Shown: positions 6,733 through 29,153 of the stretch, piece by piece
Layout: each line of letters opens with the position of its first letter
Position numbering within the stretch: position 1 is the stretch's first letter
DNA from: Pseudogymnoascus verrucosus
Lineage: Eukaryota
Length of the DNA: 32,465 nucleotides
Reading direction: 5' to 3' (one strand)
NCBI GenBank assembly: GCA_001662655.1
Contig: KV460296.1
The notes under the pieces: model-generated
Databases searched by the model: none
The model's input: the letters and a program-made list of their open reading frames with translations, nothing else
What the model was told of the DNA's origin: nothing
Made by a program: the position numbers and the translations under genes

Positions 6733-6770
6733 CCCAAGTACTCCGAGTTATTGCCTCGGAGCACTTAGGG
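6733..6770. promoter_or_regulatory. Imperfect inverted repeat with everted CCG-N11-CGG core upstream of the GH35 gene
   Basis: CCC-AAGT-a-CTCCGAG-ttattgc-CTCGGAG-c-ACTT-a-GGG, located between a TATAAAA (~6711) and the start codon. Confidence 0.4.
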
Positions 6771-6876
6771 CCAACCACAGTTGCACCACCCTGGCTTCAA
6801 AGGATAGTGCGCTGGCAAGGTAGAACAAACTGGACGATTTCCCGCGTTCATAAGATGGAACTTCCCAAAATTTGCN

Positions 6877-8610: not shown

Positions 8611-8878
8611 AAGACGAATGGGTTTAGAGTAGACTTTTGAAAAGGAGAGTCGAAATTGTATAGTTTAGTTCTTGAGGCCGAATTATATTATGGAGTGTCT
8701 CTTCAAAAGAAACCCTCCGATGAGTGTTTATCTCGTCTCCTTTCCTCAACAGGCTTGCTGGAGCTGGAGGTGAAGGCGTGGACTTTCCGCTTGGTGATCG
8801 CCGTCAAGGCCAACTATGCCCGTTGGGGTGTAGGGTCGACGTCCTCTTGCGGCTAGTAAGCCGCTCAGCGAAAAGACG

Positions 8879-8890
8879 CCGCGGAGTAAT
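8879..8890 (+). promoter_or_regulatory. Candidate cluster-regulator site CCGCGGAGTAAT (GH2 promoter)
   Basis: Exact reverse-complement copy at 15271-15282; one- and two-base variants at 17540 and 9094. Confidence 0.55.
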
Positions 8891-9093
8891 TATGGGGTGG
8901 GTGGGCATTTGATTGGGATTGCCAGCTATGGGACCCGTAAGTTCCGAGCTTAATTCTCCGGGGTAGGAGCATACATTCTCATCTTGGGACGAAAATAAAT
9001 CAAGAACCTATATTTAACTCCCCTATTACATAACTTAATCCTGCTTTTGATCTCGGAAAAATTGAAGTCGTTCGAGCGGTCTAATACGACCCT

Positions 9094-9105
9094 CCGCGGG
9101 GAAAT
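9094..9105 (+). promoter_or_regulatory. Candidate cluster-regulator site CCGCGGGGAAAT (GH2 promoter)
   Basis: Matches CCGCGG(A/G)G(A/T)AAT seen in other cluster promoters. Confidence 0.5.
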
Positions 9106-9368
9106 TTCCATTGATATCAACATCCCATCACCCTTTAGGTAACGCTAAAAATGAATTGATCGCTATGGGGATGTAAACGACATCGAAGAGTCTAGTCGGC
9201 ATCTTCTAGCACGTGAATGAGTAATTCGAATCAAACTCGGCCTTGACTTCTACCACAGCTACTTAAATGTTCTTCAACTTACAAAATTGGTGGTCATTAC
9301 TTGCAAGATTTTACGAAGGGTCATTTTGAGCATTCCCAGATCGTGTCTTCCCTGTTCTCTCCTGTACC

Positions 9369-12300
9369 ATGGCGAATAGATTTCCGTCTTCGAGGCCTGA
9401 CTGGTCTAATATAGATGTTATACATCGTGGTTTGCTTCCCCCACGATCTTACTTTTTCCTGTACGAAACTGAGTCCAGTGCTCTCAACGGCAGTCGAGAT
9501 CTGTCGCAGTCGATCAACTTGAGCGGCGTGTGGAAGTTTCATCATAGCGCCAACCCCTTTGAGGCACCCGGTCAGTTCGAGAACCCAACAAATGACACAA
9601 CAAATTGGAAAGATATTCGAGTTCCAGGTCATTGGCAGCTTCAAGGGTGGGGTAAACCTCATTACAGCAATATCAACTACATCATCCCTGTGGATCCGCC
9701 AAACGTGCCATTCGATGCCAATGAGACTGGCAGTTATGTTACGAAATTCAGTGTACCAACAACCTTTACAGATGAACAGCTACGGCTTCGATTTGAAGGT
9801 GTAGATTCTGCATTTCACGTCTATGTAAACGGTGTTATGGTTGGTTACTCGCAAGGTTCCCGAAACCCCGCAGAGTTCGATATCATGTCTACAGTCAAGA
9901 TGGAGGAGGAGAATGTACTAGCTGTACGGGTTTATCAATTCTGTGATGGCACGTATCTGGAAGACCAAGACCAGTGGCGAATGAGTGGCATCTTCCGCGA
10001 CGTACTACTTCTTGCGTTCCCAAAAGATCATATAAAAGATTTTCAAGTTCAAACACTACTCGATGACGATTTCAAAAATGCGTATCTCAAAGTAAAGGTC
10101 ACCACGGAGGGTCGGGGCTTAATCGACCTCAAGCTTCTCGACTCGAGAGGAGTTACCATCGCTACGGAGTCAATGCAAGGCAGTGACCATCCAACCGTTT
10201 TCAACATCGCGATGACCGAGCCCAAAAAATGGAGTGCAGAAGACCCTTATCTTTACAAGCTTATTCTCTCTTTTGGCGGTCGTTTCATCGCCCAGAATGT
10301 TGGCTTTCGTACGGTGGAGATCAAAGACGGAATCTTTAAGGTTAATGGCAAGAGAATTGTCTTGCGTGGTGTCAACAGGCATGAGCATCATCCTATGCAT
10401 GGTAGAGCGGTTCCTTACGACTTCATGAAACATGACTTGCTTCTAATGAAGAAATACAATATCAATGCTATCCGGACGGCTCATCAACCCCCAGACCCAA
10501 GATTTTTCAGTCTCGCGGACGAGTTGGGCTTTTGGGTTATTGATGAGGCAGACCTTGAATGTCATGGCTTCAGTGCTATTGATAAGCTAATGTTGTCCGA
10601 CGACGAAAAGAAACTGCCGTATGCAGAAAAGATAAATCTAATCTACACTCGCCCAGGACGGTTCACTACTGACAACCCTGCCTGGAAAGGTCAACATGTT
10701 GACCGCGCAGTACAACTGTGCATGAGAGACAAAAATCATCCCTCGGTGGTGATGTGGTCTCTTGGGAACGAAGCATTCTATGGGTGCAATATTAAATCTA
10801 TGTACGATGCCATTAGAGCTCTTGATACTACCCGGCCTATCCATTATGAAGGAGATAGACAGGGAGAAACCGTTGACCTGCTGTCGAAGATGTACCTGAG
10901 TATTGAGGAACTGATTAGTTTCGGCAAAGAGCCCAACTTCACAAAGCCATTAATACTATGCGAGTACATCCATTCAATGGGAAACGGGCCGGGAAATATA
11001 AAGGAATACATCGACACCTTCTATGAATATCCTCGCTTGCAGGGTGGCTGCGCGTGGGAATGGGCGAACCAGGGACTGACGGCCAACACCCCAAACAGTG
11101 GCCCATTCTACGCCTATGGAGGAGACTTCAATGACGAACCAAATGACTCTACTTTTGTTTTAGATGGGATGTGCTTTTCTGATCATACACCGACACCAGG
11201 ACTGGTCGAGTACAAGAAAGCGATAGAGCCAGTGCAGCTTAAGGGTATTGCAGGTGGAGAAGTCACGATTGTGAATCGATACGATCTTGTCACCTTGGAT
11301 CACCTTAAATGCCACGGGTTCCTAGTTGCGGATGGGCACAAAAGGTTTCTTGGAGAGATTCTCATCCCAACAGATATTCATCCTCATACGACGGCAGAGT
11401 TGGCACTGCCACCGTTGGACACCTTTGGAATCGAAGGAGAGATTTACCTTGAACTTAATTTTACGTTGAAAGACGCAACCATATGGGCAGACAGGGTCCA
11501 TAATGTATCGTCTTCGCAACTTCAACTGTGTGCCCCTGTCAAAGAAGCGTCTAGAGACGCAGCAGATAATATGCCGCCACCAACTCTCCACAAAACACCC
11601 ACTACTTTGATCATTGCTGCAGCAGAGTCAACATGGATTTTCTCAACCATATCAGGCAAGGTTATCTCCTGGAAAAAGTATACAACCGAGCTTTTCCACT
11701 CAAGCCTTGGTCCCGAATTTGATGTCAACCGCGCTGAGACAGACAATGATCGCCGGCATGATGCTGTAGACTGGAAGGAGAAGTTCATACATCTAAGCAA
11801 AGGATACACAAAATCGGTGGAATGGTCTATAAATGCTTCGGATTCTTCGATTGGGGTCATTGTCGAAACCAGGCTTGCGCCGCTGGCTTTGTCTTGGTAC
11901 ATTAATATCACAACGAAATATACTTTCCAGAGCGACGGTTCACTAAATATCCATTGTAGCGGCAACCCAGGAGGAGAGACCCTTCCGCTCACGCTACCTC
12001 GCATTGGATTCACAATGGGTCTACCACAATCCTTTAATAAAGTCGAATGGTTTGGCCGTGGCCCAGGAGAGAGTTACAAGGACAAGAAGCTTTCACAGCT
12101 TTTTGGGAATTGGACTTCTACTGTGGAAAACCTCTTCACAAACTATGAATTCCCGCAGGAGGGGTCGAACCGCACCGATGTGCGATGGGTAAAGCTTGAC
12201 TCCGGCGAGGCTAGTATAAAAGCGAAGTTTGGGAAACAAGACGGCTTCAGCTTTACGGCTACCTACTATACGTGGAAAGATCTGTACGAATCTAAACATC

Positions 12301-12452
12301 CACACGATCTAAGGGAGAAGAAGAAAGAATATGTCGTACTAAGGCTCGATTCAGATCATCATGGGCTTGGCTCTGGAAGCTGTGGGCCGAAGACAAGGAA
12401 AGAGTACGCATTGAAACCAGGAAATTTTGAGTTTGAGATTGAACTAGAATGA
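9369..12452 (+). CDS. GH2 beta-galactosidase (LacZ/LAC4-like, 1027 aa, intronless, no signal peptide)
   Basis: LRFEGVDSAF, YLEDQDQWRMSGIFRDV, GVNRHEHHP, RDKNHPSVVMWSLGNE (acid/base), PLILCEYIHSMGN (nucleophile), YGGDF, WFGRGPGESY.DKK, and small-chain C-terminal GLGSGSCGP. Confidence 0.96.
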   Translation: MANRFPSSRPDWSNIDVIHRGLLPPRSYFFLYETESSALNGSRDLSQSINLSGVWKFHHSANPFEAPGQFENPTNDTTNWKDIRVPGHWQLQGWGKPHYSNINYIIPVDPPNVPFDANETGSYVTKFSVPTTFTDEQLRLRFEGVDSAFHVYVNGVMVGYSQGSRNPAEFDIMSTVKMEEENVLAVRVYQFCDGTYLEDQDQWRMSGIFRDVLLLAFPKDHIKDFQVQTLLDDDFKNAYLKVKVTTEGRGLIDLKLLDSRGVTIATESMQGSDHPTVFNIAMTEPKKWSAEDPYLYKLILSFGGRFIAQNVGFRTVEIKDGIFKVNGKRIVLRGVNRHEHHPMHGRAVPYDFMKHDLLLMKKYNINAIRTAHQPPDPRFFSLADELGFWVIDEADLECHGFSAIDKLMLSDDEKKLPYAEKINLIYTRPGRFTTDNPAWKGQHVDRAVQLCMRDKNHPSVVMWSLGNEAFYGCNIKSMYDAIRALDTTRPIHYEGDRQGETVDLLSKMYLSIEELISFGKEPNFTKPLILCEYIHSMGNGPGNIKEYIDTFYEYPRLQGGCAWEWANQGLTANTPNSGPFYAYGGDFNDEPNDSTFVLDGMCFSDHTPTPGLVEYKKAIEPVQLKGIAGGEVTIVNRYDLVTLDHLKCHGFLVADGHKRFLGEILIPTDIHPHTTAELALPPLDTFGIEGEIYLELNFTLKDATIWADRVHNVSSSQLQLCAPVKEASRDAADNMPPPTLHKTPTTLIIAAAESTWIFSTISGKVISWKKYTTELFHSSLGPEFDVNRAETDNDRRHDAVDWKEKFIHLSKGYTKSVEWSINASDSSIGVIVETRLAPLALSWYINITTKYTFQSDGSLNIHCSGNPGGETLPLTLPRIGFTMGLPQSFNKVEWFGRGPGESYKDKKLSQLFGNWTSTVENLFTNYEFPQEGSNRTDVRWVKLDSGEASIKAKFGKQDGFSFTATYYTWKDLYESKHPHDLREKKKEYVVLRLDSDHHGLGSGSCGPKTRKEYALKPGNFEFEIELE

Positions 12453-13007
12453 AGATACAAGAAACTATTATCGAGCTTTGTTCACGTCATAAACTTCCCC
12501 TCAACATCGCTTCCAATGTACATGCAAGTGTGATACGCCTAATGAATGTTATAGCGCACACTGAACCGTCCCATTAATCACATTATTACGACTTGCCGAT
12601 CGTAGAAGCAGTTGGGCAGGGAAAAATACTCATAGATTTCTCTTGTTTTAAAGATAGGTTGGGAATACTAGCAAATACCGTCGTACTTTGATTTTGTTGT
12701 TAAGACTGGCTATAGATCTTCCTAAGTTCGTCGCTTCTAGAATAGTAACGTCTGTCATGATGGCTGTCGATTGATTTCGTTGAGGATCTGCACTGCACCC
12801 AAGCTTGTATGCTACTTGTTGCGTTCTCGTGGTTGGTAGTAGTTATAAAAAAATTCTCAAAACATTAGACAACAATCCAAATAATAATGTTCAGGTTTAT
12901 ACTACGAGTATATTGAACTGCAGTTGAGGGAAGTTTTTGTAGCATAACTAAGTTGTTCGGCACATTGTGACTGAAATGACTTGAGACTCTTCCTCTCCTC
13001 AGGCCCC

Positions 13008-14870
13008 TTAGACAGAAACAGATTTTGCCTCGACATGGAGCGTGTTGAGCACGGTCTGGACGTTCTTAGCCTGGAGACTCATCTTGACTGGATTATCCGC
13101 CTGAAACACTTCATCTAGTTCTTCGAGTGTTCGTCCTTTAGTCTCTGGCCAGAAGAAATAGATGACTATGAGCTCGAGGACATCCCAGCAAATGAAGCAG
13201 ATATAGAAGTAGTACATCATATGCTGGAACGCAGGACCAGACGAGTATTGGATAATAGCAGAGGAGCAGGCTGTGAAGAACTGGGCCAATGACTTGCCCT
13301 TTGCACGCGTAGGTGTGTCTAAACATTCCACGACGTACATTGGAGAAAGCGGGGTCCAAGCGAAGGAGAATACGATCCCAAACAGGTAGATGAATGCAAT
13401 GCTAGTATTTGCCGCAGCTGAGTTATCCGGGTTCTCCTTGGCCAGCTTCGAAACCGGAGTGAGGATGACAAAGCAACAAATGCAGGCCATAAGTGAAGAC
13501 ATAAGCAGCGGCCTTCTTCCAGCCTTGTCTAGCAACATAGCTCCTGCCAATGAAGCAATGAAGCAGAGAGGTGCGTTAATACCGTTAAGTAGAAGCTTTC
13601 TCTGCTGGGATATGATTCCAGCATTTTCAAGCATCACTGGCAGATAGTAACTGGTGACTGAGTTTCCGGACCACTGACCGAATACGGCCATTGTCAAAAC
13701 AGGTACCAAGCGGCGACGATGAGACCGAGTATCCCATAGCTCCCTATAGTCCCACCAACTCTTGTCGGATCCTGTAGTCGAGATTTGATATTCCATTTCT
13801 GCCATTTGAAGCTTAACAATGGGGTGTTCAGGATCACCTTCACCATGATAACGGGCCAAGACAGCGCGTGCGGATTCGTTGCGTCCGTGGCTTATAAGCC
13901 ATCGTGGAGATTCAGGTAATAACCAAACGAATAGGGCGATCAGGCCGCTAGCGATGAGTTGACAATATAGAGGAATACGCCACCCGTTGGGCTTGTCCCG
14001 GGCAGCGTAGACAACCCATGCAGCCAATATTGAACCAATGTACCTATCAATGTAATATTAGCTTCATATCCTATGAGAATGTGCAAACTGTTGATAATTA
14101 ATACAGAGAATTAAGCCTGCTTACCAGAAGCAATTATAAACTCCCGACAGAGGCCCACGAAATGCAGGGTGAGCCAATTCCCCAACATAGATGGGTCCGC
14201 TGACATTTGCAAAGCAAACCCCGAACCCAAGAACAAATCGCCCTCCCATGAACATATCATGGTTTTTTGCAGACGCAGTAATAGCTGTTCCCATGACGAC
14301 AATAAGTGACCCGGTAAACATACCAGCACGCCTGCCCCAGTAATCGTTCACAGGCCCTACAAATGGTACAGCACATGCGGACCCTGTTTGAAAGCGTTAG
14401 CGGTCACGTATTTCATGATTCATTCACAGACTACTTTGAACGTACCGACGTTGTAGATGGCAAAAATGAGGCCAGTGCTCGAGGACGCGCTCACCCTGTA
14501 ATGGTATTAATAATGTGACAAGGCATACAGTGGTAAGGAAGAAATACATGTTGAAAAACTTTTGGTATGAAACCATAGCGTTGATCCCCCTAGGAATTTA
14601 TATTAGCAATGAGAGTATTAGTTGAAATTAGAGCGTGGCTACAAACCCCATAACAGAACCGTCAAAGCCGTTCATAGTTGCACAAAGGTAACCGATCAAC
14701 AAGCAACCATACAGACGCATCATGCTTAGAGAAAATATAGGGTACGTGGCTTGAATAGCACCATTGGCAATGCTAGTTGCCTCCATGGCATTTACGACGG
14801 CGTCGTCTCCGATGTTGCCCAAATGTTCGTCATGAGCAATGCGCTCGTCAAGCTTCTCGTTGGCCGCCAT
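13008..14870 (-). CDS. MFS sugar porter of the lactose-permease/cellodextrin-transporter type
   Basis: Exons 14870-14647, 14589-14548, 14495-14446, 14383-14125, 14043-13008. Motifs MNGFDGSVMGGINAM, NDYWGRR, GRFVLGFG, ELAHP.FRG..YNCFWYIGS, PESPRWL, GQWSGN, DKAGRRPL, PETKGRTLEE. Confidence 0.93.
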
Positions 14871-15270
14871 GAGAAATTTATATCCTGTATGGTTCCGTAA
14901 AAGGAAATGTCTGGCACGAATAGCGTAAGGAGAAAGGAGTTGCCGTGGTGAGGAGACAGAAAGTATTCACGTAGGGTCAGTTGACATCTTATATATATCC
15001 GATGAAGATGTCTACGAAAGCACCTGATGTCTGCAGACTTGGGCGGTTCTAGGTACAACAAATATGGGGACAAAATAGTCTAGAGCCAAAACAATCCGGG
15101 GTTGCGGGGTCGCATGAACTCTGGGGCAGCTGTAATTCGTATAGTATAGTAGTGTTTTGTATGCTTATTTTCTCACTGTTCGGCGATTCGAGTGGGTTAG
15201 CCCGACAGGGCAAACCAAACTAAAAGCAAAGGCTGGACGGGACAACTTTTGCTACCCCCTCCTCGGCTGC

Positions 15271-15282
15271 ATTACTCCGCGG
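15271..15282 (-). promoter_or_regulatory. Candidate cluster-regulator site CCGCGGAGTAAT in the divergent permease/TF promoter
   Basis: Plus strand ATTACTCCGCGG(C); identical 13-mer GCCGCGGAGTAAT to 8878-8890. Confidence 0.55.
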
Positions 15283-15500
15283 CAACTCTGGTCCAACCAA
15301 ATTTGCTCAACGCTAAGAGGCTTACGCACTCGCCGACTCCTTGGTTCATTTAGAGTCACCTTGATGAGCTAGATTATCCCGTTCTGCCGCTTATTTCATT
15401 TATTAAAGGATCCCTTCCTTAAGTGGACCGACAGTCTCTACTTATTTGTCCGACTTCGCACCAACCTCTATTCCTTCCCTCTCCGCGGACATTCTCCTCA

Positions 15501-17305
15501 ATGGCCTCTAGAAGAGGGTCGACGGTTACTCGTGCTTGTGATTCGTGTCGTATGCGTAAGGTCAAATGTGATGTAGGTGCTCCAGTAGCTGTTCTAATGG
15601 CTACTAATGTAAACGTAGGCATCAGAGGATTGCTCCAATTGCCGACTTTCTGGTCTTCCTTGCCAATACACCTCTGCGCGGAGAAAGCGGGGCCCCAAGG
15701 TGACCAGGGCACTGAGGGCTATAGAGAAAGCACGTCAAGCCACGCCTAATGCATATACTCCTGCCCTGGAGGACCGTTTGCCTTCCAATGAGGGCCCGAT
15801 GTTCCCGCCTACTCCATCCATTTGGGCAGATAGCCAAGGGCAGCAAGGACACGAAGACCTCACCCCATCTTTTAGCGGTACAGAAATCGTGCCAACAACG
15901 GAATCCGCTGGAGCAATCCGTGATAGTTTGGTGCAGTCGATGAACTGCTCAATTCCATCTATTCCTGCTCTTAATGTCATCAACCTCTGTATAGAACTCT
16001 ACATGAAATACACGTTTCCAACGGCCCCATGTGTGCATGAACCCACTCTTCAGGCAAGCGCCAACAAGTTCTTTGCGGAAGATTCTAGCGCACAACTGTT
16101 TGGCACAGGTAGTTGGGGGGACAAAGTAGTAGACATGAGGGCATTCACTCTGCTCACCGCCGTATGCGCGTCGGTGGCGTCTGTTTTGCCCAAGTCCTTA
16201 CTCCCGTATCAGGAGGCTCTCGCAGAGCCATGTCTCAAGGCTTCCCGAAATATGCTAAAGGTCTTCGAGGACTTTGATATCGAACACCCATGTGCCACTT
16301 CAATTATTTCGAGATCATTGCACTCTACAGCTTTGCAACAAATCACTGGGAAAAGCGCATTGGCATACCATATCCTCGGGCAAGCTACTTTGCTACTTCA
16401 AACTATGCGTCTTTATCGTGAAGATGCCTTGAGCAGCCATAATGCACTTCAGGCCCAACTACTTCGAAATGCTTTCTGGCAATTATTCGCAGCAGACAAA
16501 GCGTCAGCCTGTCTAGGCAGCCGTCCGTTTGTGCTTCATGAGATGTTGTTTGGCGAAGAACTGACCTTGCGCTTAAGCGGAGAAACTATGGTGCCACTGA
16601 TGAGCACATCCAGTCCTTGGTTTGAAGAGACATTAGAAGGAAAGATTCTACTAGGATTCCATTTTATTCCTCGCCTCTGGTCTACGGCTGCCAGCCTTCT
16701 CTCTGATATAAAGGCATATGGAGGAGTAGACGAGGATGCTGAGATGAAGACCCGACTAATACAAGATTACGTGGTATTTTCCGGCATTCTTGATGAACTT
16801 CCACAGTGGCTACAGACCTCTAGTCTTATTGTTTGTAGTGAAGACGGAAGGGCCACCCAATGTCAAAGAACTATGTTCTGGGTTCAGCGATGCACGATCA
16901 TGGTAACTTACCAATGTTTAAGGCTTGTCATTCTGCAACAATGCATTAATAGCAAGGCCTGGGATATTATAGGTTTGAATGGCCTGGCTCTTACTATAGC
17001 AATGGCGAAGATCGGCATAATTTATGATTTCATTCAGACACTAGAGGATATTCCATTTGTTTATCTCCAAGTCAAGGGAGAGCCAACAGTTAGTAGCCAC
17101 TGTGGATCTAGGACGGGCCAGCTGCTGATTTTAGTTCTAGGTGCAAAGGATTCGTGTAGTTGGCAGCGTTTTGCTTGAGATGACTTTCAATCCTGAGAAT
17201 GAGACTATACAAGAACGTGCAAAGAATTATTTTGTTAAACTTCTAGATATATTAGGTAGGCTGGACTCAAAGGCTTCAGATGAAATGAGCAGCTGGCAGC
17301 CGTGA
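15501..17305 (+). CDS. Zn(II)2Cys6 transcription factor (probable regulator of the glycoside cluster)
   Basis: Exons 15501-15572, 15619-17088, 17141-17305. Splicing gives ACDSCRMRKVKCD-ASEDCSNCRLSGLPC..RKRGPK. Middle-homology region LRNAFWQLFAADK; C-terminus KGEPT-VQRIRVVGSVLL..LLDILGRLDSKASD. Confidence 0.92.
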
Positions 17306-17539
17306 AACAAATACAGCGAAATACACGGGATATGATATAGGTGTGTTTCAAATGAAAGTTTACAATATCGGGAAACTTAAGTGTCAAAGCGACTCATTGT
17401 TATTCTGTCTTAAAATAATCTACTGTGCATTATCACTTTATTTGGAGGGCCCATACCACTGTGGTTCCCTCCCAACCTTGTATTCACTTGCCCCGCCTTA
17501 TTTCTATAGCTCCTCGGAAGTATGCATAATGGGCTTTGT

Positions 17540-17551
17540 CCGCGGAGAAAT
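17540..17551 (+). promoter_or_regulatory. Candidate cluster-regulator site CCGCGGAGAAAT (GH3 promoter)
   Basis: Matches the shared motif; a second CCGCGG lies at 17677-17682, just before TATATAAA. Confidence 0.5.
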
Positions 17552-17783
17552 ACAACATAGCACAGTTATCGAGTACAAGGCTGCAAATTAAGCAATCTGT
17601 ATCTTGAGTTCCTACAACCGCGCTAGTAATAAGATTCGACCTCACTAGTTTCTAGATGTTTACCACAGAATGATAACCGCGGTAGGGGTATATAAACAAC
17701 ACTTTATCAAATCAAACCAGTCCCATTTGTTAGCAAAATTCTCGCCGCTTCTACATAAGCTGCCGTCACACATACGTTGCAGA

Positions 17784-20527
17784 ATGTTGTCCCCAAGTCT
17801 TACTGATGACAAGTTTGACGGCATTGTTAATCAGCTTTCACTACCAGAAAAGGTTGGCCTGCTCTCTGGAGCCGGTGCTTGTCGTACGTCTGGGTTGCAG
17901 AGGCTGAATATACCCAGCCTTAACGTAAGCCTTTCTAAATATTGTTTAATAGCTGTTTGGACTCTAACTGTTGAGGTCTAGACATCAGATGGCCCACATG
18001 GCCTACGTGGTGGCGGCGGCCGCTTCTTCAATCCCGTACGTACCAAATACTGATAAGCCTATGTATCCGGGGCATCATCTGAGTTAATGCTTACCTACTA
18101 TACAGCCACCGGGGTACCAATTGCCATCTGCAACGGCAATTGGGGCAACCTTTGATGTCAACTTGATGCATCGTATTGGAAACTTGTTAGGCGACGAGGG
18201 CAGACGCAAAGAAGTGCATGTCGNNNNNNNNNNNNNNNNNNNNNNNNNNNGAAGACCCTGTTCTCAGCGGGACCCTGGCACTGCATTACATCAATGGCCT
18301 CCAAGAGCGCCAGGTTGCTGCCTGTATCAAGCACTACGCAGCACACGACCAATCCGCCATGGCGACTGAAGATGATGTCCATATGACGGAACGAACGTTA
18401 CGTGAAATTCACCTTATGCCGTTCCAAATTGCAATGAAGTCCCAGCCATGGGCGTTTATGGCATCGTATAATCGCATCAATGGTCTTCATGTGAGCGAGA
18501 GCCCATTTATGTTGACAGAGATTCTCCGCAAGGAATGGAAGTTTGATGGCCTGGTCATGAGTGACTGGTGGGGCACTTACAGCACTTCCGAGGCCGTCAA
18601 CGCTGGCCTCGATTTAGAAATGCCCGGACCTGCCATTTGGAGAGGCAAGCAGTTGGTTTCCGCAGTCGAATGTCGGAAAGTGCCAATGAAAGCGATAGAT
18701 ACTGCCGTTAGGAACGTACTAAAGCTTGTAGACAGAACCCACAACCCTACCGCTCCTAGAGAGAACGAAACTGGAGATACAGAAGAAAGTCGAGCACTAA
18801 CCCGAAAAGTGGCCGCCGATGCCATTGTCCTTCTAAAAAATCATAGACACATCCTTCCACTGGCTAAAGAATCAATTCAGACAATCGGCTTGATTGGCGA
18901 ACACTTTAAAATACCAGCTACTTGCGGAGGGGGAAGCTCAGAAGTAGCCCCTTTCTACGTTAGTACACCATTTGATGCAATCGTGGAAGCACTGGGTGCC
19001 GACAGGATTCAGTACCATGATGGTTGTTATTGTGAGTCGCTTGGTCCCTGGAGAACCCCCTTTCCAAACTCTAGCTGACAATCTCAGCCCGCAGATGGAC
19101 TCCATTAATAACAAGTGGCCTTACTATTCCTAAATCCCCAGAACCTGGTTTACTCCTTGAATGGTTTGGAGAAGATCCGACTAAAGTCAACGGCACTCCA
19201 TGCGTTCATTCTACAACAACATTAAGTACATCTATGTATTTTAGCCAAATGATATTGGAATCTGTGCCAGATACCCATTTCATTCGGATCAAGACAATTT
19301 TTGCACCAGAGGAGACCTGCAAATATCGCTTCGCTCTTAGTGTCTGTGGGAAGGCAAAGCTTATCATTAACGGAAGAGAAGTGGTTGATCTATGGACAGA
19401 CCATCCCAAAAAGACAGCCGACACCCCTTGTTTTAACAAGCTATCAATGGAAAGGCTGATAGATCTCGATGTGGAATTTGGCCAAAAGTATGACATCGTC
19501 ATTATTATGACAAATGAGACCGACAAAGCACATATTGGACCTACTCCACCTGGTGGTGTTCGCCTTGGAGGGCAGAAAATTCGAGATGAGGACGAGGCCA
19601 TTAATGAGGCCGTGGATTTGGCACGAAATGTTGACATTCCAATTGTGTTGGCCGGCTTGAGTTCTGATTACGAATATGAGGCTTCCGATCGTGCAAGTCT
19701 AAAACTGCCAGGTCGAATGGATGAAATGATACAGCGAGTTGCTGAAGCCAACCCAAAAACAGTGAGTGTGTGAACTTTCCCAGAGAGACTGGATGCTGAA
19801 TATATCACAGATTGTAATCACTCAGGCCGGAATGCCTTTTGAGATGCCTTGGATCGAGGCCACAGATACTCTTGTACATGCTTGGCTAGGCGGCCAGGAG
19901 ACAGGACATGCAATTGCTGATGTATTATTGGGGGCCGTCAATCCGTCAGGGAGACTGTCAATAACATTTCCGAGGCGACTCGAAGACACCCCGACATTCT
20001 TGAACTTTGGTAAAGCCGACCGTCACATCGTCTATGGTGAAGGTATTTTTGTTGGACATCGGTATTATGAGATGATTGACCGACCACCGCTCTTTTATTT
20101 TGGATATGGCCTATCATACACTGATTTTGAGTACTCGAACTTGATTGTCCCAGATGTAGTTTGCCCTAGGGTGGTTGGAGGGATGAACGATGTCGTTTTC
20201 AACATTTCGGTAGACGTTACTAACGTGGGAACCTATGACGGTTCAGAGGTCATTCAGGTGTACATTACAGATCTGGAGTGCTCAGTTCAACGGCCTAAAA
20301 AAGAATTTAAGGCTTTCCAGAAGGTCTATCTCGCCAAGGGGGAAAGGCGAACTTGCCATTTTACCTTAGATAAATACGCGCTCTCCTTCTGGTCTGAGGA
20401 ACATTCCCAATGGATAACGGAAGCAGGTGATTTTGTAGTAGTCATTGCTACCAGCGCTGACCCTGCAGATGAACTACTTCGAGTATCTTTTACTGTAACA
20501 GAGACCTTCTTATGGTCTGGCCTTTGA
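17784..20527 (+). CDS. GH3 beta-glucosidase, intracellular type with probable PA14 insert and FN3-like C-terminus
   Basis: Exons 17784-17924, 17982-18035, 18106-19031 (N-gap 18224-18250), 19088-19761, 19811-20527. Motifs [41 protein letters not shown] (nucleophile), [39 protein letters not shown]. No signal peptide. Confidence 0.94.
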
Positions 20528-21954
20528 AGTAGATACTGGGAGTGGCTCATCTACATCTTTAATACGAAGTCTTAATCTATCGCATCGAATTCGTTTTAAG
20601 GGCAGATTTTAAATGACCAAAATAGCGTTAGATGTGGCATAATGAGCAATAATGCCTAAGTCTCTCAATTTCAAATCAACCTAAGAGTAGATGTGGCATT
20701 ATATGTCTTCTGTTTTAGACCACTCCGATACTTTCGTCACATTTGACTAGAAGCCAAATTTTGGTCACGACGATTAATAGTCGCGAAATTCCGTGGCAGC
20801 GGCATATAATCCATATTTCCTGATCCTGGGCATACTGGGTGAGGATCTGATATTCATATTANNNNNNNNNNNNNNNNNNNNNNNNNNNNNNNNNNNNNNN
20901 NNNNNNNNNNNNNTTCCTTACCCAGCGCATAACAGCGCGCTTCTACCGCCTGCCCGGCTCCTCCTCCCCGCTGCCGCAGCCGCGCCAGCGACCCCCGGCG
21001 GTGGCGGCGGCGCACAGGCCACCAAACTCCCTCCGCTGAGCCCCTTGCCGCCTTAAGCGTGAGCAGGGTGAGGCGACGCGATGTTCTCGTGTCAATCTCA
21101 ACCAATGCGCTGCCGCAAGGAGTAAAAGAAAGAAAACAACACGTCGAGGACGCAAGTACGGAAGATGGGATGACGAGGTTATACCTAGATTGTCCCTCTT
21201 AAGACATAAATGCCGTGAAAGCATGGCTCGAATCTACCACCCTCTTCTACCGCCCCGGGAAAATCATCCCCGCCCCCATACCCCTCCACGCCATATCAAT
21301 GCATTCCTAAGGCGCAAGCAAGCAACCCTTCCCTCGCCACCTCTAGAATTAAACCTCATGGAAGAAATGGTTGTTGGGTGGGATATATGGCAAACCTCTT
21401 TCTCTGGCGAGAAAGCAAGTCAAGTTAGAGATAGTCGCATCGCATTAATGAGTGCAGAAACGCTGTCACAGACAGCTGGAACTATTCGGTCGGGTTCTAG
21501 AACTGCTTAGTCAGTTCAACAGACTGTTATCTTCACCAAGATCAAACCTAGTTAGGTCAAAGTAATAGTTCCACTTGCTCGCCTAGCTCGCTACAGGCGC
21601 TGATTGACCAGCACGTAATTAAGTGGGTTTACGGGCGACTTGTTTCCCGCGTGCCCCTCAATATCCAGTTGCTTTCAAATCAAATAGCTTCAGCTTTGTT
21701 GAATGTAGAGCCGTAGAATAAGGACAAACTATCTTATAACTTAGCTCTTAATAGATAAACTTACGCTAGTTCTTAGTACCATGTTGAATGACGTTGTATA
21801 CGCCGTGCGTATTTTCTGCCATGAAGCTATTTGAAGGCCGCGAAGCCCTCGCAGCCAACGACGCTATAAAAAATCAAGCACAATATCTCACCTTCTCGAC
21901 CAAACGAAAAATCCACCTAACAGATATCTCAAGTCATACAAGAGTATAGGCAAC

Positions 21955-23002
21955 ATGGTTTCTTTCACAGTATTCAGGGGTTCGAAAGAGGGGTCCATCG
22001 TAGAAGGAACTACAACCAGAGAAATACGTGAGGATGAGGTACTCGTGAAGGTGACACACTCGGGTGTTTGTGGAACAGATGAGCATCGGAGGCACACGGA
22101 TATGGTACTTGGACACGAAGGAGTCGGAATAATCGAGGTGAGCGGCTCCAGTCTTGCACCTAAAATTGTATGGCTCCTAATCATCTCTGTAATAGGATAT
22201 CGGAAGCGCCGTCAAAAGCCACTCAATCGGCGAGCATGTTGGGTGGGGATATTTTCACAACTCATGCGGTGTTTGCAAGCAGTGCCTGTTGGGGAGAGAT
22301 AATCTCTGTGCGCAAGTTGAGAAGTACGGCAAATCAAACCTAGATCAGGGATCCTTTGGCACCTACGCGGTCTGGAAAGCATCATTTGTATTCAAACTTC
22401 CATCAACGATAAGTCTGGAAAACGCAGCACCTCTAATGTGCGGCGGAGCCACGGTTTTCCATGTGTTAAAGAGCTCGAATGTTAAATCATCAGACCGAGT
22501 CGGCGTCGTCGGAATCGGGGGCCTAGGCCATCTCGCTATTCAATATGCCGCCAAGATGGGCTGTGCGGTCGTCGCTTTCTCTGGCACAGAAGACAAGAAG
22601 GAAGAAGCCATGAGGTTAGGCGCAACACAATTCGTCGCCACAGCAGGAGTGGAAACGCTCGATATTGGAGAGCCGCTCGACCACCTCTTGGTCACCACAT
22701 CGTTTCAACCGGACTGGGACCGTTTTCTGGCTATCATGGCGCCACAGGGAAGCATCTACCCTGTCACGGTCAGCGATCACAATCTGAGCATTCCTCCCGG
22801 TGTAGTGATTGGCAAGGAGCTGCGAATCATAGGCTCACTAGTTGCTCCGCGTCAGGTGTATCGGGAGATGATCGATTTTACTGCCTTGCACAATATCAAG
22901 CCAATCATTGAAACATTTCCCATGACGGCACAAGGAGCCACCGAGGCAATGGATAAGCTGCGAGCTGGAAAGATGAGGTACAGAGGGGTGTTAGCCGCTT
23001 AG
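21955..23002 (+). CDS. Zn-dependent medium-chain alcohol dehydrogenase (cinnamyl-ADH/Adh6-like)
   Basis: Exons 21955-22137 and 22196-23002. Motifs SGVCGTD, LGHEGVG, structural Zn CGVCKQC..C, AAPLMCGG, GIGGLGH, GKMRYRGVL. Confidence 0.93.
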
Positions 23003-23174
23003 TGTAGACAGTTTGTATTTTTTGTATCTACAGGAGCATACAGAGTCTTACCAATTCATTTATGATCACTGTTTAGACCTGCGGTTCGTCTACGTGACAA
23101 CAGTTGATAGAAAAATAAATGGTAAAAACAGAGATTCATTTCTTTAAATATATATTAAGCTAGCTTTTCATTAA

Positions 23175-23944
23175 CTAGACAACTAGTGTGACCTTTCCAG
23201 TAGTTATATCATAGACAAAGCCGTGTGTTCGTTCGGCAAGTTCTTTTCTAAGAAGAGGCGAGTTGTGTACGAGCGCAACATCATCTCGAATGCTTTGTTC
23301 AAGACTAAATGGTTGAGAAACCAATTAGTATATCGATCTNNNNNNNNNNNNNNNNNNNNNNNNNNNNNNNNNNNNNNNNNNNNNNNNNNNNNNNNNNNNN
23401 NNNNNNNNNNNNNNNNNNNNNNNNNNNNNNNNNNNNNNNNNNNNNNNNNNNNNNNNNNNNNNNNNNNNNNNNNNNNNNNNNNNNNAGTAAACTGTAAAAC
23501 GTGGTCGAGAAACACCAGATTCAGCATCTGGGGGGCCATACGTCCGGCACAGCTACGAACAACAACAGCATCTTATAAAATGTCAGCCTACATAAAGTTC
23601 AACGGAAGATTTAAATATCAAAGGAACCATTACCCCATTTCTCTAATCCTAGGATTTCGAAAGGGTCAAGTCGATTGTCGCAGCATGAGACTAGTTTTCG
23701 CAGCAGTTAGAGAGACAATATGAAGAGAGCAACTGAGCTTTTCTCACCGATAAATATTTTCGGCATTGGCACCTGTTGCTTGAGCGGTTGCTGGCTTATC
23801 TCGCTCAAGGATGGAATAGGTCGATGGCTCTGTGCTTTTTCACTATAGCAAAAGTTACTTGGAGTCTCTTCTCTGGGCTATTCTCTTTCATTGTACATAC
23901 CTATTTCGCCGTAGAAGCTCTTCCACAGTCGGGTTCCCACTCAT
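23175..23944 (-). CDS. Beta-class carbonic anhydrase, clade-D-like (COS/CS2-hydrolase family); not represented in the ORF track
   Basis: Exons 23944-23901, 23842-23748, 23690-23634, 23571-(gap 23485-23340), 23304-23175; visible introns are GT-AG, 57-62 nt. Product MSGNPTVEELLRRNSEKAQSHRPIP..KIFIVSCCDNRLDPFEILGLEKWDAVVVRSCAGRMAPQMLNLVFLDHVLQFT[gap]LEQSIRDDVALVHNSPLLRKELAERTHGFVYDITTGKVTLVV*. CxDxR zinc motif and GFVYDxxTGK terminus are visible; HxxC is expected inside the gap. Confidence 0.88.
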
Positions 23945-24748
23945 AATGAAAAGTCTCTTGAACACTATTAGCAGTGCAGGGTTTGATATATTATCACCTT
24001 TTTTTTGAAGTATTGAAGTAAGAATTTGATATTACACAAATATAAGCTCAACTGCGCCAAAAGAAGATGAACAAGTTAAATACTAGGCTTTTGGTTATCT
24101 GCCTATGCAAAGTCTCACATTACAAATCTACAGAAATCACTTACCTGTCTTTGAGGACTGAAGGCAATACTACAGAAACTAGCAGGGATGAGTCCAATGC
24201 AGGTGCTCGTTGCGAGCGACGCGAGACTAGCAGGGATTAGTCGAATGCAGATGGCTTACAGAAGGGAGAAGCCACTGTCGGAACCCCCCTGGATCTTACG
24301 CATCGAGTCCAAACAAAGTTCTTTACAAGTAATAACCCATGTCTACAGTAGGTTCCCACTCGCATCCAACGAGCATACCGTAACGACCGTAACGAGGGAA
24401 GCGACGCTAGCACAGTTGGGCTTAATAATTCAAGGACCAGCTCAACTGTGGGTATTATGGCTGACCATCATCTTGACGCGATACAAATTATATAAAGGCC
24501 TACAGAACGCCAACTTAATTTCCTGAATTGTATACAAGACATAAACAAGACACGACTTTGAAGCCAGAAAGCGAAATCAAATATTTACAATAGCGCACTC
24601 AAGGCAAGTCTTACAAATGCCGTCCCCATTTCTTGGAGTCGAACTCTGGTGTCTAACATATGATATTATTTAGGAGCTCGATTAAACACCCATCTTTTTC
24701 TAAAAACATCTCCAGTGCAGAACCTAAACCTATTACCTTTCGTACAAG

Positions 24749-25541
24749 ATGTCAAAGCAATCAATTCTGATTGTCTTGTCCTCAAGCCCGCAAGGATGGT
24801 ACTTGGTATGACAACTTCTCTCATTGGGTGTCCATTCTTCTGACACAAGGCCACAGCCAGAATTTGCACACCCATACGAAGTCCTATCACCACATTTCGA
24901 CCTCGTTGTAGCATCACCGAAAGGAGGAGCAACAGTCCTGGATCCTGTATCCGTCGAACTATTCAAAGGTGACGCATATTGCGTAGAGTTCGCTGAAACA
25001 AAGCAAAAGTTGTGGCTAGAGACACAAAGATTAGAAAATTTTCTGGGTCGAGCAAAAGAATTCGTTTGCATATTCTACGTAGGAGGTTTCGGACGTAAGA
25101 CCTTGACTCCTATCTTTTGCCGAAGTCTAAATAGACCATGCTAACTTGTAGTTAGCCATGTTTGACCTTGTCGACGATGCCACCTCGATCCAGCTCATTC
25201 GAGAGTTCCACGAGGCATCGTGTACCGTGGTGGCTCTTTGTCATGGCGCCGCTGCTCTGCTAAATGTCAGACTCGCAGACGGTTCGCATTATATCGAAGG
25301 AGAGAAAGTGACAGGATTTAGTAACGAGGAGGAGATAGCTGTTGACAGGCAAAAGGACATGCCGTTTCACCTTGAAGATGCTCTCAACAATGCCAGTGGC
25401 GGAAACTATGAGAGGTCCAAGGAGGCATGGGCTCCACATGTGACTGTCAGCTCTACGAAGAAGTTATTATGGGGACAGAACCCAGCGAGCGCCCAACCTC
25501 TCGCAGTTGAATTGCTAAAGGCGCTAAAGGCGGAGAGGTAA
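24749..25541 (+). CDS. DJ-1/PfpI (ThiJ, Hsp31-like) family protein
   Basis: Exons 24749-24805, 24857-25094, 25156-25541. Product MSKQSILIVLSSSPQGWYL-PEFAHPY..ASPKGG..LDP.S..FYVGGFG-PMFDL..ALCHG (Cys nucleophile)..VTGFSNEEE..MPFHLED..GQNPASA. Confidence 0.92.
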
Positions 25542-25819
25542 AATGTGAAAACGAAGATATATAGATTTCAATAACTTATATAGAGTATCATTTTTATCCA
25601 CACGTACGGCAATTTACCGCGTGGCTTGTCATCTCAATCCAAAGCTGCAATCTTATTGTCGTGTTCTGTTCTGGCCTCGAACTGCGCCAGACCCCATCGA
25701 CAACCCCCGCCACAATGCGCCTCATAACGTAGGGAAAGTAACGGGGGGAAGTAATAGGAGTTGTGAAAGCGGATGCTGTTCATGAGATCTCATGAGGACC
25801 TTGCCATTTTAACTTCAAC

Positions 25820-27477
25820 TCAACCTAGGCATTCGATGTGAGAAACTTCCTCCATCACTAGAAACCCATCCTGAACATCCTTTGGCAAATATCCGTGCCA
25901 ACCCTTGTCGACTTCGCTACGCCAAGAGTGAAATAATGCAAGTGCCTGTGGCCTATCCGATAGTAGTCCGTTCTCAGAGATGCCTGCTTCATACACGTCA
26001 AGCTCTAGGGATTCCATTTTGCCAAGTATGTTCTGCTTCCAAGTNNNNNNNNNNNNNNNNNNNNNNNNNNNNNNNNNNNNNNNNNNNNNNNNNNNNNNNN
26101 NNNNNNNNNNNNNNNNNNNNNNNNNNNNNNNNNNNNTATTGCGTTGCTCTACAGTATGGAGTCGTATCTTGGCTTCAAGTTGAAACATTATTTCAAGCGT
26201 GTTAGCGGAAGTGAAGCCATTTGAAAGACCTTCCGGGCCAATCAAACGAAGTGTGGAAACTATCCATTGCTGCCAAGCCTGCGAAAAGCATCGACGTGCA
26301 ATTTGATAGATGTATACCGAGATTCCCATACTAATAGCATCACAAGGTTTGTCTCGCTTCTCACTTTGGTCGTTGCGACTTTCCACCAGACCTGCAGTAA
26401 TACAAAGACTTTGATAAACAAGGTTCATGGATTCCAATTCGCGTGGTGCGGGATCCACGTCTGTTGTGGCAATCATTGCTAGAGAACATCCCACGAATGT
26501 GTTGTACATCAACATGTTGAGTGCCATCTCGTTAGTTGAAAATCGACAAGCTATAGGTGGCAACGGACGCATATNNNNNNNNNNNNNNNNNNNNNNNNNN
26601 NNNNNNNNNNNNNNNNNNNNNNNNNNNNNNNNNNNNNNNNNNNNNNNNNNNNNNNNNNNNNNNNNNNNNNNNNNNNNNNNNNNNNNNNNNNNNNNNNNNN
26701 NNNNNNNNNNNNNNNNNNAGAAAGCCTCTTCCCAAAATCCGCCTCTCGGATGGTTAGTTTTGAGAAGCGTGAGAATGATGAGGATGCATAAGGCACCAAC
26801 TTCTGAGCAAGGATGTCCAACTCTAGCATGGCGTCACAGAGTGGTACCATATTACGAGGATTACTGATAGACAAAATGTCTTCAGACTCTGGTAGAAACT
26901 GTATAGCTGCCCAGAGATGCTGAAGTGCACCTTTAGGGTTCTCTTGGAAGCACTATGAACGAAATTTAGTGGAGCTTTTGGATGGGGAAAGGTATATTCC
27001 CACCTCAAAGTACGTAAGCAATATAAGGACAATAAGAAGGACAGGCATATCTGGCTTCGTTTCTTGCCTTAGGTAATTGGATAGTANNNNNNNNNNNNNN
27101 NNNNNNNNNNNNNNNNNNNNNNNNNNNNNNNNNNNNNNNNNNNNNNNNNNNNNNNNNNNNNNNNNNNNNNNNNNNNNNNNNNNNNNNNNNNNNNNNNNAA
27201 GCCGAACTGCAGTTGCCGTTACAAAGTGGTGATAAAGCGGCAACTGTTCCTGTCGCCAATGAGGGTGCTTCCATGATAGCTCACAGGACAGGTCTTGCTC
27301 TTCGCGGAGAGGCCGGTTTTGGGAAGGAGAGCCGGCTTGTGGCGCTCTTCGAAGAGGTCTATAACCCTCGCAGACGAAATTCCCGGTGGAACAACGATTA
27401 CAAAATGGTTTTGCTTCGTCGCACTTTACGCGTCGCTTAAGACAAGTCAAGCAGCCGGTACGTACACGTCTGTCCAT
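25820..27477 (-). CDS. Zn(II)2Cys6 transcription factor (second regulator), interrupted by three N-gaps
   Basis: MDRRVRTGCLTCLKRRVKCDEAKPFCNRCSTGNFVCEGY from ATG 27477. Intron 27003-26953 joins LLTYFE-CFQENPKGALQHL; the C-terminal frame ends at 25820. Confidence 0.85.
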
Positions 27478-28077
27478 GACTTTCAAACCTTGGCTTGCAT
27501 ATGCAGGTGTGAAATTCGGTAAGTGAAGACTGTTTGACTTCGAAGCGGGGTGTAGGGGATGTAAAAGCTCTATATAAAGGCGGCGATGAATCGTCACACT
27601 TTCCAATTTTAGCTGCTCCACCTAGGTCAGCATGAACAACAGGGCCGTGAATTCTGCCCGCTCTTACCACACGCGGTAAGCACTAGTATACTCCTTTCAG
27701 AGTGGAGCTTCTAGTTGTGAATACTTCAATTATGCGAATATACACGAAGGTTGAAAGTGTATTTACATCATAAATTCTAAGTCGCACATCAATTTCCTTA
27801 TCTTTGCTTCCCCCCACTCCCTCCCCGCCCAGTGCCTATAGAGTAGATAGAAAAAGATGGAAATTTAAACTAAAATTGGAACGCTAATTTATACAGGACC
27901 TAACTATACACAGGTCATTCGCTTTTGACTATTATGTAGGTCATGAATATACAATCGTTGCGCCCCTAACCCCATTCCTCCAACCCCTATACCATAGGTC
28001 CTAGGCTGGGCAGTCATGCCCCCCAAAAATGCAATGCGACCACAACGAGACTCCTCTATCTATCCCTTTCTGCTTCT

Positions 28078-29153
28078 TCACCTCTTGCTCCCCTTCTTCT
28101 TCTGCGCCTCCCCAATCTCCTGCACCGACAAATCCAACTCCGACACATCCTCAAAATTCGCATTCGGCGGATCGCGATCAAGCAGATACGCAAAACGCGT
28201 CACATTGTTCATGACGTACATCGGGACATCGACGTTGCGCTCCACGCGGTCGTAGGTCTGCCAGTAGCGATCGAACAGATCAAGTCCATTGCGGACGCGG
28301 CGCAGGATTCCCGCCTTAGCGCGGTACTTCTCCTGATTGTACTCTGCGTGCGAGAAGGAGGCAAGTTTGTTGAGGAGAGTGGAGATGTGCGAGAAGCACG
28401 ACGAGCAGTGCCACGCCGCGTTCCAGAGATCAGCGGACTCGCCGATACGCGTCAGCGGGTTGCCGCCACGGCCGGAGCGCAGGTTTGAGGGTGACAGCGT
28501 GGTCTCGCCGGTGTAGAAAGTTGCTNNNNNNNNNNNNNNNNNNNNNNNNNNNNNNNNNNNNNNNNNNNNNNNNNNNNNNNNNNNNNNNNNNNNNNNNNNN
28601 NNNNNNNNNNNNNNNNNNNGAGGAAGGGGATGACTTGGTCGAACATGGCGTTGCGCTGCAGGTCTTCGTGGTCCCAGGCCACGGTGGAGTTGAGGTCCGA
28701 TTCGAGGACGTGGTGGATGATTTGAGAGTGGAAGGGAGCGAAGCGATCCCAGTTTTCTTGGAGGTGGAGGGGCTTGTCGAGGCCGGTGAAGGTCTTGGGG
28801 GACTCGACGACGACGAAGTAGTCGACTTGCTTGCTGAGAGTGTTGAGGCGGATCTCGAGCCAGTTTAGCTCATCGTTGATAAGGAAGAGGTCGTAGATCT
28901 TGCGCTTGCCGCCTTTGGGGGTGTGTGGCTCCCAGTGGTAAGGCGCGCATAACTCGGCGGGCGTGGCTTCGGCGACGTAGGAGGTCGCTTTGTTGTCGAC
29001 GGGACCGAGTTCAGATTGCCAGGTTGAATGGCTCGCGGGGATTTGATGGCGGCGGGGGGTAAGCGGGCTGTAGAAAACGGCGATGGTGACGAGCACGAGG
29101 GCTGCGAGGGCGATGAAGCGTGTCAGCCGTCGTGTCGGCATTATGGAAATCAT
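28078..29153 (-). CDS. Glycosyltransferase family 17 (beta-1,4-N-acetylglucosaminyltransferase-like), type II membrane protein
   Basis: N-terminal TM anchor; RKIYDLFLINDELNWLEIRL..VDYFVVVES.KTFTG..KPL, EDLQRNAM. After the N-gap the frame continues LWNAAWHCSSCF..KLASFSH..GLDLFDR..YLLDRD..NANF to TGA at 28078. Confidence 0.9.

Follow-up and report, generated by a model that had tools for sequence, protein, structure and literature searches.

A predicted Zn2Cys6/DJ-1/dehydrogenase regulon in Pseudogymnoascus, with a beta-carbonic anhydrase as its probable passenger

Background

Which of four genes packed into a short stretch of fungal DNA belong together, and what could their products be directed against? 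The genes encode a zinc-dependent alcohol dehydrogenase (ADH), a beta-carbonic anhydrase (CA), a member of the DJ-1/PfpI superfamily (hereafter DJ-1) and a Zn2Cys6 transcription factor (TF), and they lie in a sequence of 32,465 bases (bases 1-32,465 of contig C91 in a fungal assembly of 30.2 Mb), which was analysed as a whole and is called the window below; CA and TF have their nearest named relatives in Pseudogymnoascus species. An initial annotation proposed a compact detoxification pathway, in which DJ-1 attacks an isothiocyanate, dithiocarbamate or isocyanide, CA clears the released carbonyl sulfide (COS), CS2 or CO2, and ADH reduces a derived aldehyde. We favour another reading, to which we give somewhat better than even chances: TF, DJ-1 and ADH would constitute a private regulon against reactive aldehydes, and CA would be a passenger. 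Taken separately, the module architecture and co-regulation appear likely, and the aldehyde chemistry, predicted from sequence, is moderately probable.

Gene models

According to models built from splice sites, ADH, CA, DJ-1 and TF are real genes. ADH, a zinc-dependent medium-chain dehydrogenase of the Ahr/cinnamyl-ADH type (329 aa), is encoded on the plus strand (21955-22137/22196-23002) with one intron (22138-22195), a model backed by Pfam, NCBIfam, PDB and contig matches. The CA gene, of a divergent clade-D/Cab type and about 181 aa long, runs on the minus strand from its ATG at 23944 to the stop at 23175, with four exons before a run of Ns and one after it (23944-23901, 23842-23748, 23690-23634, 23571 into the N run, and 23305-23175). 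The three CA exon pieces of the window gave no Pfam match; the model agrees with P0011, a full-length relative, which is assigned to Pro_CA and is identical to every unmasked residue of the window protein. DJ-1 (226 aa, Hsp31 class II) occupies 24749-24805/24857-25094/25156-25541 on the plus strand, and the TF gene, broken by three N runs, extends from 27477 to 25820 on the minus strand. The N runs in TF comprise 112, 144 and 92 letters at places where the relatives have about 198, 246 and 162 nt of coding sequence, so that the TF frames across them are unproven in this assembly. Among the window pieces, Pfam recognised ADH_N/ADH_zinc_N and Zn_clus, as well as a weak DJ-1_PfpI match in exon 3.

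Thus, the Zn2Cys6 regulator and cinnamyl-type dehydrogenase that had been placed at the edges of the module are indeed there, and the head-to-head arrangement of CA and DJ-1 is real, with 804 bp of putative two-way promoter between their start codons (23945..24748); ADH and CA, like DJ-1 and TF, are tail-to-tail. The module shares an AT-richer block with sugar-utilisation genes, as had been claimed: the GC content at third codon positions is 0.31-0.56 in the 13 block pieces measured versus 0.62-0.80 in the high-GC housekeeping genes on the left (SPO11 and ERG7, lanosterol synthase) and on the right (GT17 and CAF1, CAF-1 subunit A).

Conserved gene neighbourhood

A metagenome scan seeded with the DJ-1 alignment yielded at least 17 loci from at least 594 pattern matches, and the counts below refer to the 17 loci listed. 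In eight of them (L021-L024, L026-L028 and L037) the same TF, 39-48% identical to the window TF in its C-terminal part, lies tail-to-tail with DJ-1; given that L022/L023 and L026/L027 are near-copies, these make six independent cases. As for the other nine, L025 and L034 end within the gene, L029, L033 and L035 have less than 600 bp downstream, and TF was not found in the 1.5-4.2 kb downstream at L030, L031, L032 and L036. The DJ-1 proteins differ in one motif: every TF-linked locus that shows the site has Phe at the His of the GGHG motif (GGFG), and canonical GGHG is present in seven of the nine loci without an observed TF. The DJ-1 proteins of the TF-linked loci group with Helotiales proteins, that of L024 with Lambiella.

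An ADH orthologue stands head-to-head with DJ-1 in L024, L028 and L037, i.e. in three of the five independent TF-linked loci whose upstream sequence reaches at least 4 kb; in exon 2 these proteins are 46-64% identical to the window ADH, and each is nearer to it than is the closest paralogue in the genome. No ADH was found over 9.6 kb in L021 and L022/L023. Conversely, in L037 (4325-4943) DJ-1 is frameshifted and lacks about 50 codons, and thus appears to be a pseudogene, next to ADH and TF that read intact and two promoter elements that persist. The absence of ADH from the former loci and the broken DJ-1 of the latter suggest that the enzymes are separately dispensable; the TF + DJ-1 locus is the constant part, from which each enzyme can be lost singly. 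Beta-CA, searched for as three types with tblastn and an unfiltered hidden Markov model (HMM) search, is present in 0/17 loci. Hence the conserved unit is TF + DJ-1, often with ADH, and not a CA-centred set: of the co-location anticipated by the initial annotation, the TF/DJ-1 and ADH/DJ-1 pairs are found outside the window and the CA linkage is not. A compact module of detoxification type, whose conserved neighbours TF and DJ-1 are probably co-regulated, has nevertheless gained support.

Could the genes be chance neighbours in an accessory island, with no shared regulation? The AT-richer, insertion-like block with its unrelated sugar genes, and a genome with about 10 DJ-1-family and five beta-CA loci, would suit such a view, but the TF-DJ-1-ADH order and the promoter element described below are conserved among fungi that are no more than about 64-79% alike in their DJ-1/TF DNA. 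We therefore regard it as highly improbable for the module, although coincidence could still apply to CA alone.

The remaining neighbours vary. Genes of detoxification type were seen in L037 (a glutathione S-transferase past ADH, 1-663), in L021 and in L024 (ABC transporters, 2870-7222 and 2-2504, respectively); they are not conserved, no element was seen before them, and no transporter is a conserved module member among these loci. In L035 (916-1344) a GGHG-type Hsp31 has as its tail-to-tail neighbour another zinc-ADH-like gene, which shares 25% identity with the window ADH; this is possibly a second, independent Hsp31/ADH pairing.

Promoter element

The upstream regions share the sequence CGAG[CG]GAAGCGA, i.e. 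two CGA triplets 6 bp apart, which was first spotted by eye. Its distance upstream of DJ-1 is 350-760 bp, and it shares the strand of DJ-1: the window has it, L021, L022/L023, L025, L028 and L037 match it exactly, and L024 has the 12-mer core with one mismatch in a tandem run; thus, among the loci listed, each of the six independent GGFG loci that offer 1 kb of flank has an element less than 1 kb upstream of DJ-1. In the shuffle control for the 12-mer, no promoter matched in more than 4 of 300 shuffles. The element is absent upstream in the TF-less GGHG loci L030, L031 and L034 (more than 2.6 kb upstream, best scores 7.6-8.2), of which L031 and L034 carry the same DJ-1. In L024 (5684-5727) the element has grown to four or five CGA triplets with a 9-bp period.

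A leave-window-out scan, with a matrix trained on other fungi only, gave its top score in the window (28.0) to GTAACGAGGGAAGCGA at 24388..24404 on the plus strand, which lies 345 bp from the start of DJ-1 and 444 bp from that of CA and is the candidate site of the adjacent TF. The site ranked second (24208-24224, score 20.4) is 264 bp from the CA start and lies in a plus-strand region (24175..24263) where a 31-nt direct repeat (24175-24205, 24223-24253) surrounds it; after the repeat region comes the word TGGCTTRCRGAA, common to the window, L021, L022 and L025. The third rank (17.8) falls inside GT17, at 28730, and the fourth (15.7) is an inverted copy on the minus strand at 21579..21595, some 360 bp before ADH begins; 1 of 400 shuffles reached its score, and control fungal DNA (63,417 bases) contained no site scoring as high. 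This copy is placed relative to ADH much as is the ADH-proximal site in L037, at a similar distance and in the same orientation; the L037 site is about 300 bp away from the start of ADH, on the other strand. The TF, GH2 and MFS promoters of the window have no element. The 16-mer consensus has a single exact match in the 30-Mb genome, namely the 24388 site, and the search revealed no genome-wide regulon (15 exact 12-mers versus 9 in the control, 125 16-mers with two mismatches versus 165).

Since TF and the element co-occur, we infer that the adjacent TF binds the element. Zn2Cys6 factors typically recognise spaced triplet repeats: triplet direct repeats with a 6-bp spacer in the case of Hap1, and TCG half-sites in that of Upc2-type factors.

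DJ-1 protein

DJ-1 exhibits Glu21, Cys127, His128 and Glu157, and Phe97 in the GGFG variant of the GGHG motif. The nearest structures of its full-length relative P0002 are the class II Hsp31-like proteins 1u9c and 4p5p, followed by GATD1, Glx3 and yeast Hsp31, and no isocyanide hydratase (ICH) is present among the 17 PDB matches of P0002 (E <= 0.001). The Glu together with the Cys-His-Glu set therefore places DJ-1 by sequence in Hsp31 class II, not with ICH. Glu21 is presumably equivalent in position to Asp17 of ICH. InhA/ICH is likewise a Cys enzyme of the DJ-1 superfamily, but its Asp17, described as the general acid (PMC10462001), is Glu21 in the window protein, and the earlier assignment of DJ-1 to heterocumulenes or isocyanides is not supported by its active site.

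The class II proteins and glyoxalases III (S. cerevisiae Hsp31, C. albicans Glx3, S. pombe Hsp3101 and Geobacillus APC35852, i.e. 1u9c) share with DJ-1 the fold family, the length and the residues Glu21/Cys127/His128/Glu157, of which Glu and Cys are reported to be required for glyoxalase III activity (PMC4021431). DJ-1 differs from them in the GGFG motif, in its linkage to its own TF and promoter element, and in forming a separate clade: in a tree of the last exon only, with L037 excluded, the GGFG rows stand apart from the GGHG rows with support 98/97. In VcHsp31 the His in question helps to form the oxyanion hole, and its mutation lowers glyoxalase activity (PMC5325305); with Phe97 in its place, the substrate of DJ-1 may differ from methylglyoxal.

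The replacement of this His also feeds the main rival explanation, which retains the regulon and makes the GGFG DJ-1 a Cys hydrolase of an ester, lactone, thioester or amide xenobiotic, with ADH acting on the released alcohol or aldehyde. All TF-linked rows have Phe in place of His and fall in a well-supported clade, DJ-1 proteins are reported to hydrolyse esters and cPGA (PMC13333263), a private TF would suit a specific inducer, and the at least nine other PF01965 matches in the genome (about 10 DJ-1-family loci altogether) could handle methylglyoxal. Such a chain is, however, a poor fit to loci that lack ADH (two of the five independent ones) or keep ADH with a broken DJ-1 (one), and there is no conserved transporter. 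We consider the hydrolase role unlikely, though it deserves attention before any other alternative.

The closest named DJ-1 (78%), P0001 (Cudoniella G7Y89_g12422), in a search that covered named proteins of at least 227 aa (the window protein has 226), is annotated as fused behind a GH47 mannosidase, which is probably a gene-model error.

Dehydrogenase and transcription factor

ADH possesses the ligands of the catalytic zinc (C39, H54, C143) and of the structural one (C85/88/91/99), the GIGGLG motif, the sequence AFSGT at 188 and no acidic residue past the second Rossmann strand; we take the AFS motif to mean use of NADP(H). Its best NCBIfam match is AldhRedAhr (NADPH aldehyde reductase Ahr), with 224 bits for exon 2 alone, under the cut-off of 470, and its PDB matches include 6c49 and 7bu2/7bu3. 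The zinc ligands, GIGGLG and AFS are shared with the NADPH aldehyde reductase Ahr/YjgB and with cinnamyl alcohol dehydrogenases, from which the window protein differs in being fungal and below the equivalog cut-off, and presumably also in a shorter loop joining the first Cys ligand to the His ligand.

TF has the cluster C-x2-C-x6-C-x5-12-C-x2-C-x6-8-C. Its relative P0061 (V499_00016), with Zn_clus and Fungal_trans_2, may be a paralogue, since its locus number is not adjacent to that of the CA of the same strain, V499_08012.

Carbonic anhydrase

The role of CA was the core of the pathway proposed initially. Its Cys-x-Asp-x-Arg motif (zinc ligand and dyad; C49, D51 and R53 in P0011) is encoded by exon 3 of the window gene, and the His-x-x-Cys stretch falls inside the N run, with H101 and C104 present in P0011. 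The best PDB matches are 5ztp, 3las, 6jqc (CafC), 1ylk and 3vqj; the top eight of 12 matches include CafC, Rv1284, COSase, Cab-like proteins and CS2 hydrolase, and other beta-CAs come last. ESM Atlas confirmed Pro_CA and nothing further, and an AlphaFold2 model from a 15-row alignment (pLDDT 48.8) was not used. Clade D is described as the clade of COS and CS2 hydrolases (PMC8209446), and CA may be a member of the beta-D3 group, in which Ascomycota dominate (PMC13098186).

The fungal COS hydrolases (T. harzianum ThCOSase, G. trabeum GtCOSase and A. fumigatus CafC, 6jqc) exhibit the same Cys-x-Asp-x-Arg, and the His-x-x-Cys that P0011 has. They are reported to be about 54% identical among themselves, with His55 and Ile73 as pocket residues of ThCOSase, an active-site His58 in GtCOSase, and Ile/Val at 73/76 (PMC12035519). 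The window CA is divergent, being about 33% identical to CafC by our own count on the alignment, and in the comparison with CafC numbering His55 is replaced by Val, Ile73 by Phe, Asn59 by Ser, Gly61 by Ala and Gly92 by Ser. The first two changes (Val and Phe at CA positions 68 and 86) are general in the subfamily: of the 42 relatives listed, all 38 that show the segment lack His at 68 and have Phe at 86. The active-site His and the Ile/Val at 73/76 of the COS hydrolases are thus not found in CA. The clade-D-like placement accords with the nearest Cab-type structures and with Cys-x-Asp-x-Arg; the missing His55 and a canonical CafC-like copy elsewhere in the genome speak against a role of CA as COS remover.

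This copy, on C64, is one of five loci with beta-CA matches (C8, C55, C60, C64 and C91); C60 carries another clade-D-like gene, and neither the C64 (7 kb) nor the C60 locus has an adjoining relative of DJ-1, TF or ADH or a strong element. The single cyanase match is on contig C5, with no CA within about 1.5 kb of it in a 3.2-kb locus. A link to isothiocyanates is not apparent either: the known hydrolases of these compounds, as covered by PMC7303113, have the metallo-beta-lactamase fold, as does SaxA, which releases COS and is unlike DJ-1 in this respect (PMC7303113), and no family of this fold was found among 21 window pieces scanned (the module and other open reading frames of at least 200 aa). 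The isothiocyanate route needs either such a hydrolase or a new DJ-1 activity, plus a conserved CA; neither was found, and the route is therefore unsupported. In sum, the heterocumulene pathway can invoke the relationship of CA to COS/CS2 hydrolases, the promoter shared with DJ-1 and the reactivity of Cys enzymes with such electrophiles, but these are set against a CA that is missing from 17/17 loci listed and from the joined contig of the close relative X21 (see below), the lack of His55, Glu instead of the ICH Asp in DJ-1, the fold of the isothiocyanate hydrolases in PMC7303113, the C64 gene without module neighbours and the cyanase on another contig. A CA-centred pathway is thus very unlikely, and the window is no evidence for a new isothiocyanate/COS pathway.

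Or perhaps CA is a working member in this genus, with a remodelled zinc site that (de)hydrates aldehydes or buffers pH or bicarbonate, the inversion discussed below having been kept for that purpose? In favour of this, the start of CA has element copies at distances of 264 and 444 bp, all 38 relatives mentioned share the pocket changes, and the gene, counted at whatever locus, is present in 10 named Pseudogymnoascus strains. Alpha-class CAs hydrate aldehydes; the literature search gave no paper on this. To our knowledge no aldehyde activity has been described for any beta-CA, and the gene is missing in X21 and in all 17 other loci listed; a working role thus seems improbable. Bolder still, and very unlikely in our view, an undescribed aldehyde-defence regulon of filamentous ascomycetes would, in one genus, have captured a beta-CA-fold enzyme by a single inversion, its pocket being remodelled for a substrate other than CO2; for example, it could dehydrate aldehyde hydrates and thereby deliver free aldehyde to the glyoxalase III and the reductase. 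If true, the beta-CA fold would gain a reaction not known for it before, and nature would have supplied a clean example of a regulon recruiting a gene by promoter swap.

Relatives of CA at 54-67% are patchily distributed (Sarocladium, Aspergillus, Clonostachys, Talaromyces, Fusarium, Trichoderma and Xylariales), with no Leotiomycete besides Pseudogymnoascus among 29 matches. The tree is weakly supported (2 of 16 branches starred), and we therefore make no claim of horizontal transfer. The subfamily is under-annotated, as many public models (P0013-P0016, P0032-P0035, P0041 and P0042) skip the short exons that bear the zinc ligands.

Proposed mechanism

In the reading that we prefer, a private regulon composed of the Zn2Cys6 factor, the Hsp31-type Cys enzyme and often the Ahr/cinnamyl-type dehydrogenase, a reactive carbonyl compound would be sensed by TF, which would induce the enzymes via the CGA repeats. 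DJ-1 would convert 2-oxo-aldehydes to hydroxy acids without glutathione, and the change from His to Phe at the oxyanion position makes substrates bulkier than methylglyoxal possible; ADH would reduce aldehydes with NADPH. The two enzymes would act as parallel, separately dispensable defences, not as a chain. In L024, L028 and L037 ADH points away from DJ-1 across the promoter, and in the window ADH is flipped, with CA in its place. One inversion of a tail-to-tail CA/ADH block within the genus, in which ADH carried one element copy along, would explain the flipped ADH, the position of CA and the inverted copy before ADH. Its location on the two-way promoter and its absence from X21 and from the other loci suggest that CA is probably co-induced by position but dispensable, a passenger of this genus only.

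Several points weigh against this interpretation. Since the motif had been picked out by eye from these very sequences, with the window among them, its recognition is partly circular, and only the leave-window-out scan is nearly independent. The pre-inversion order, with CA tail-to-tail with an uninverted ADH, was seen at no locus. With Phe in place of the oxyanion His, the GGFG protein may not be a glyoxalase. DJ-1 proteins also show esterase and cPGA-hydrolase activities (PMC13333263), and the frameshifts in L037 could be assembly errors. The metagenome scan was seeded with DJ-1, not with CA, and its matches are those listed; in Aspergillus, Clonostachys, Sarocladium, Talaromyces and the other fungi with relatives at 54-67%, a linkage of CA to DJ-1 may exist. 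A scan with the CA alignment gave no match, which is no evidence of absence, given that its peptide patterns span introns.

Relation to known systems

TF-linked detoxification clusters of fungi are a known kind; no published description of this module, the element or the promoter swap was found in a search largely without subscription papers and supplements, and gene-neighbourhood catalogues may already list the trio. The fungal cyanase-carbonic anhydrase (CCA) cluster and the Fusarium FDB are reportedly small, patchily distributed sets of clustered detoxification genes, with TF-containing types among them. The present module resembles them in being small and patchy, and differs in having no cyanase, different enzymes and a CA that is not a conserved partner.

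The module offers a testable set of TF, site and targets: it comprises a single regulator, an element of 16 bp that occurs once in the genome, and two enzyme subfamilies. Characterised members were not found for the GGFG-type Hsp31 or for the clade-D beta-CA with a changed pocket. The inducer, once found, would assign a substrate to a branch of fungal DJ-1 proteins, where physiological substrates are debated. The window also illustrates how an inversion may swap a gene onto a two-way promoter, and soil surveys that score every clade-D beta-CA as a COS hydrolase may overcount.

Transcripts and close relatives

Two runs listed as probable RNA, X11 and X15, from two organisms and two studies, contain contigs in which the ADH intron (GT..AG) and DJ-1 intron 2 are spliced out, and both cover CA in part. 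A 636-nt contig of X11 spans the 3' exon of CA, and rows of the same depth reach its 5' end, from which splicing of CA in this contig may be deduced. TF is represented by a trace in a single RNA-type run and the sugar genes by nothing, but absence of cover is no proof; the soil metatranscriptome X20 has just short pieces of ADH and GT17.

The DNA run X21 (record 19), from a relative about 90% identical, has ADH, DJ-1 and TF in window order on one contig of 24.5 kb, but the 864 bp at 23205..24068 of the window are replaced by 124 letters (joint 23204-24069), and CA is missing, except perhaps for its last 30 bases. These bases, if they are remnants of CA, hint that the gene was lost rather than never there. 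In the promoter, 24069-24259 and 24342-24459 align between unalignable stretches. The module is about 90% alike in X21 and the window and the flanking GT17 region 86-88%, a similarity of divergence that fits inheritance of the module within the genus.

Left of 21452 the X21 module contig turns into sequence unlike the window. The sugar-utilisation cluster of the window (4400-20860) contains an MFS transporter, GH35/DUF5597 and GH2 beta-galactosidases, a sugar porter, a second Zn2Cys6 TF and a GH3 glucosidase, and in view of this boundary looks like a separate acquisition or loss. In X21, TF and GT17 are on separate contigs, and about 7.8 kb of other sequence precedes GT17 (27633-28096 in the window); the right edge of the block is thus rearranged between the relatives. 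Two inverted repeats in the window are probably due to chance: one of 20 nt (90%) within the TF gene (26728-26747/27307-27326), and a perfect one of 13 nt in the ADH promoter (21680-21692/21822-21834).

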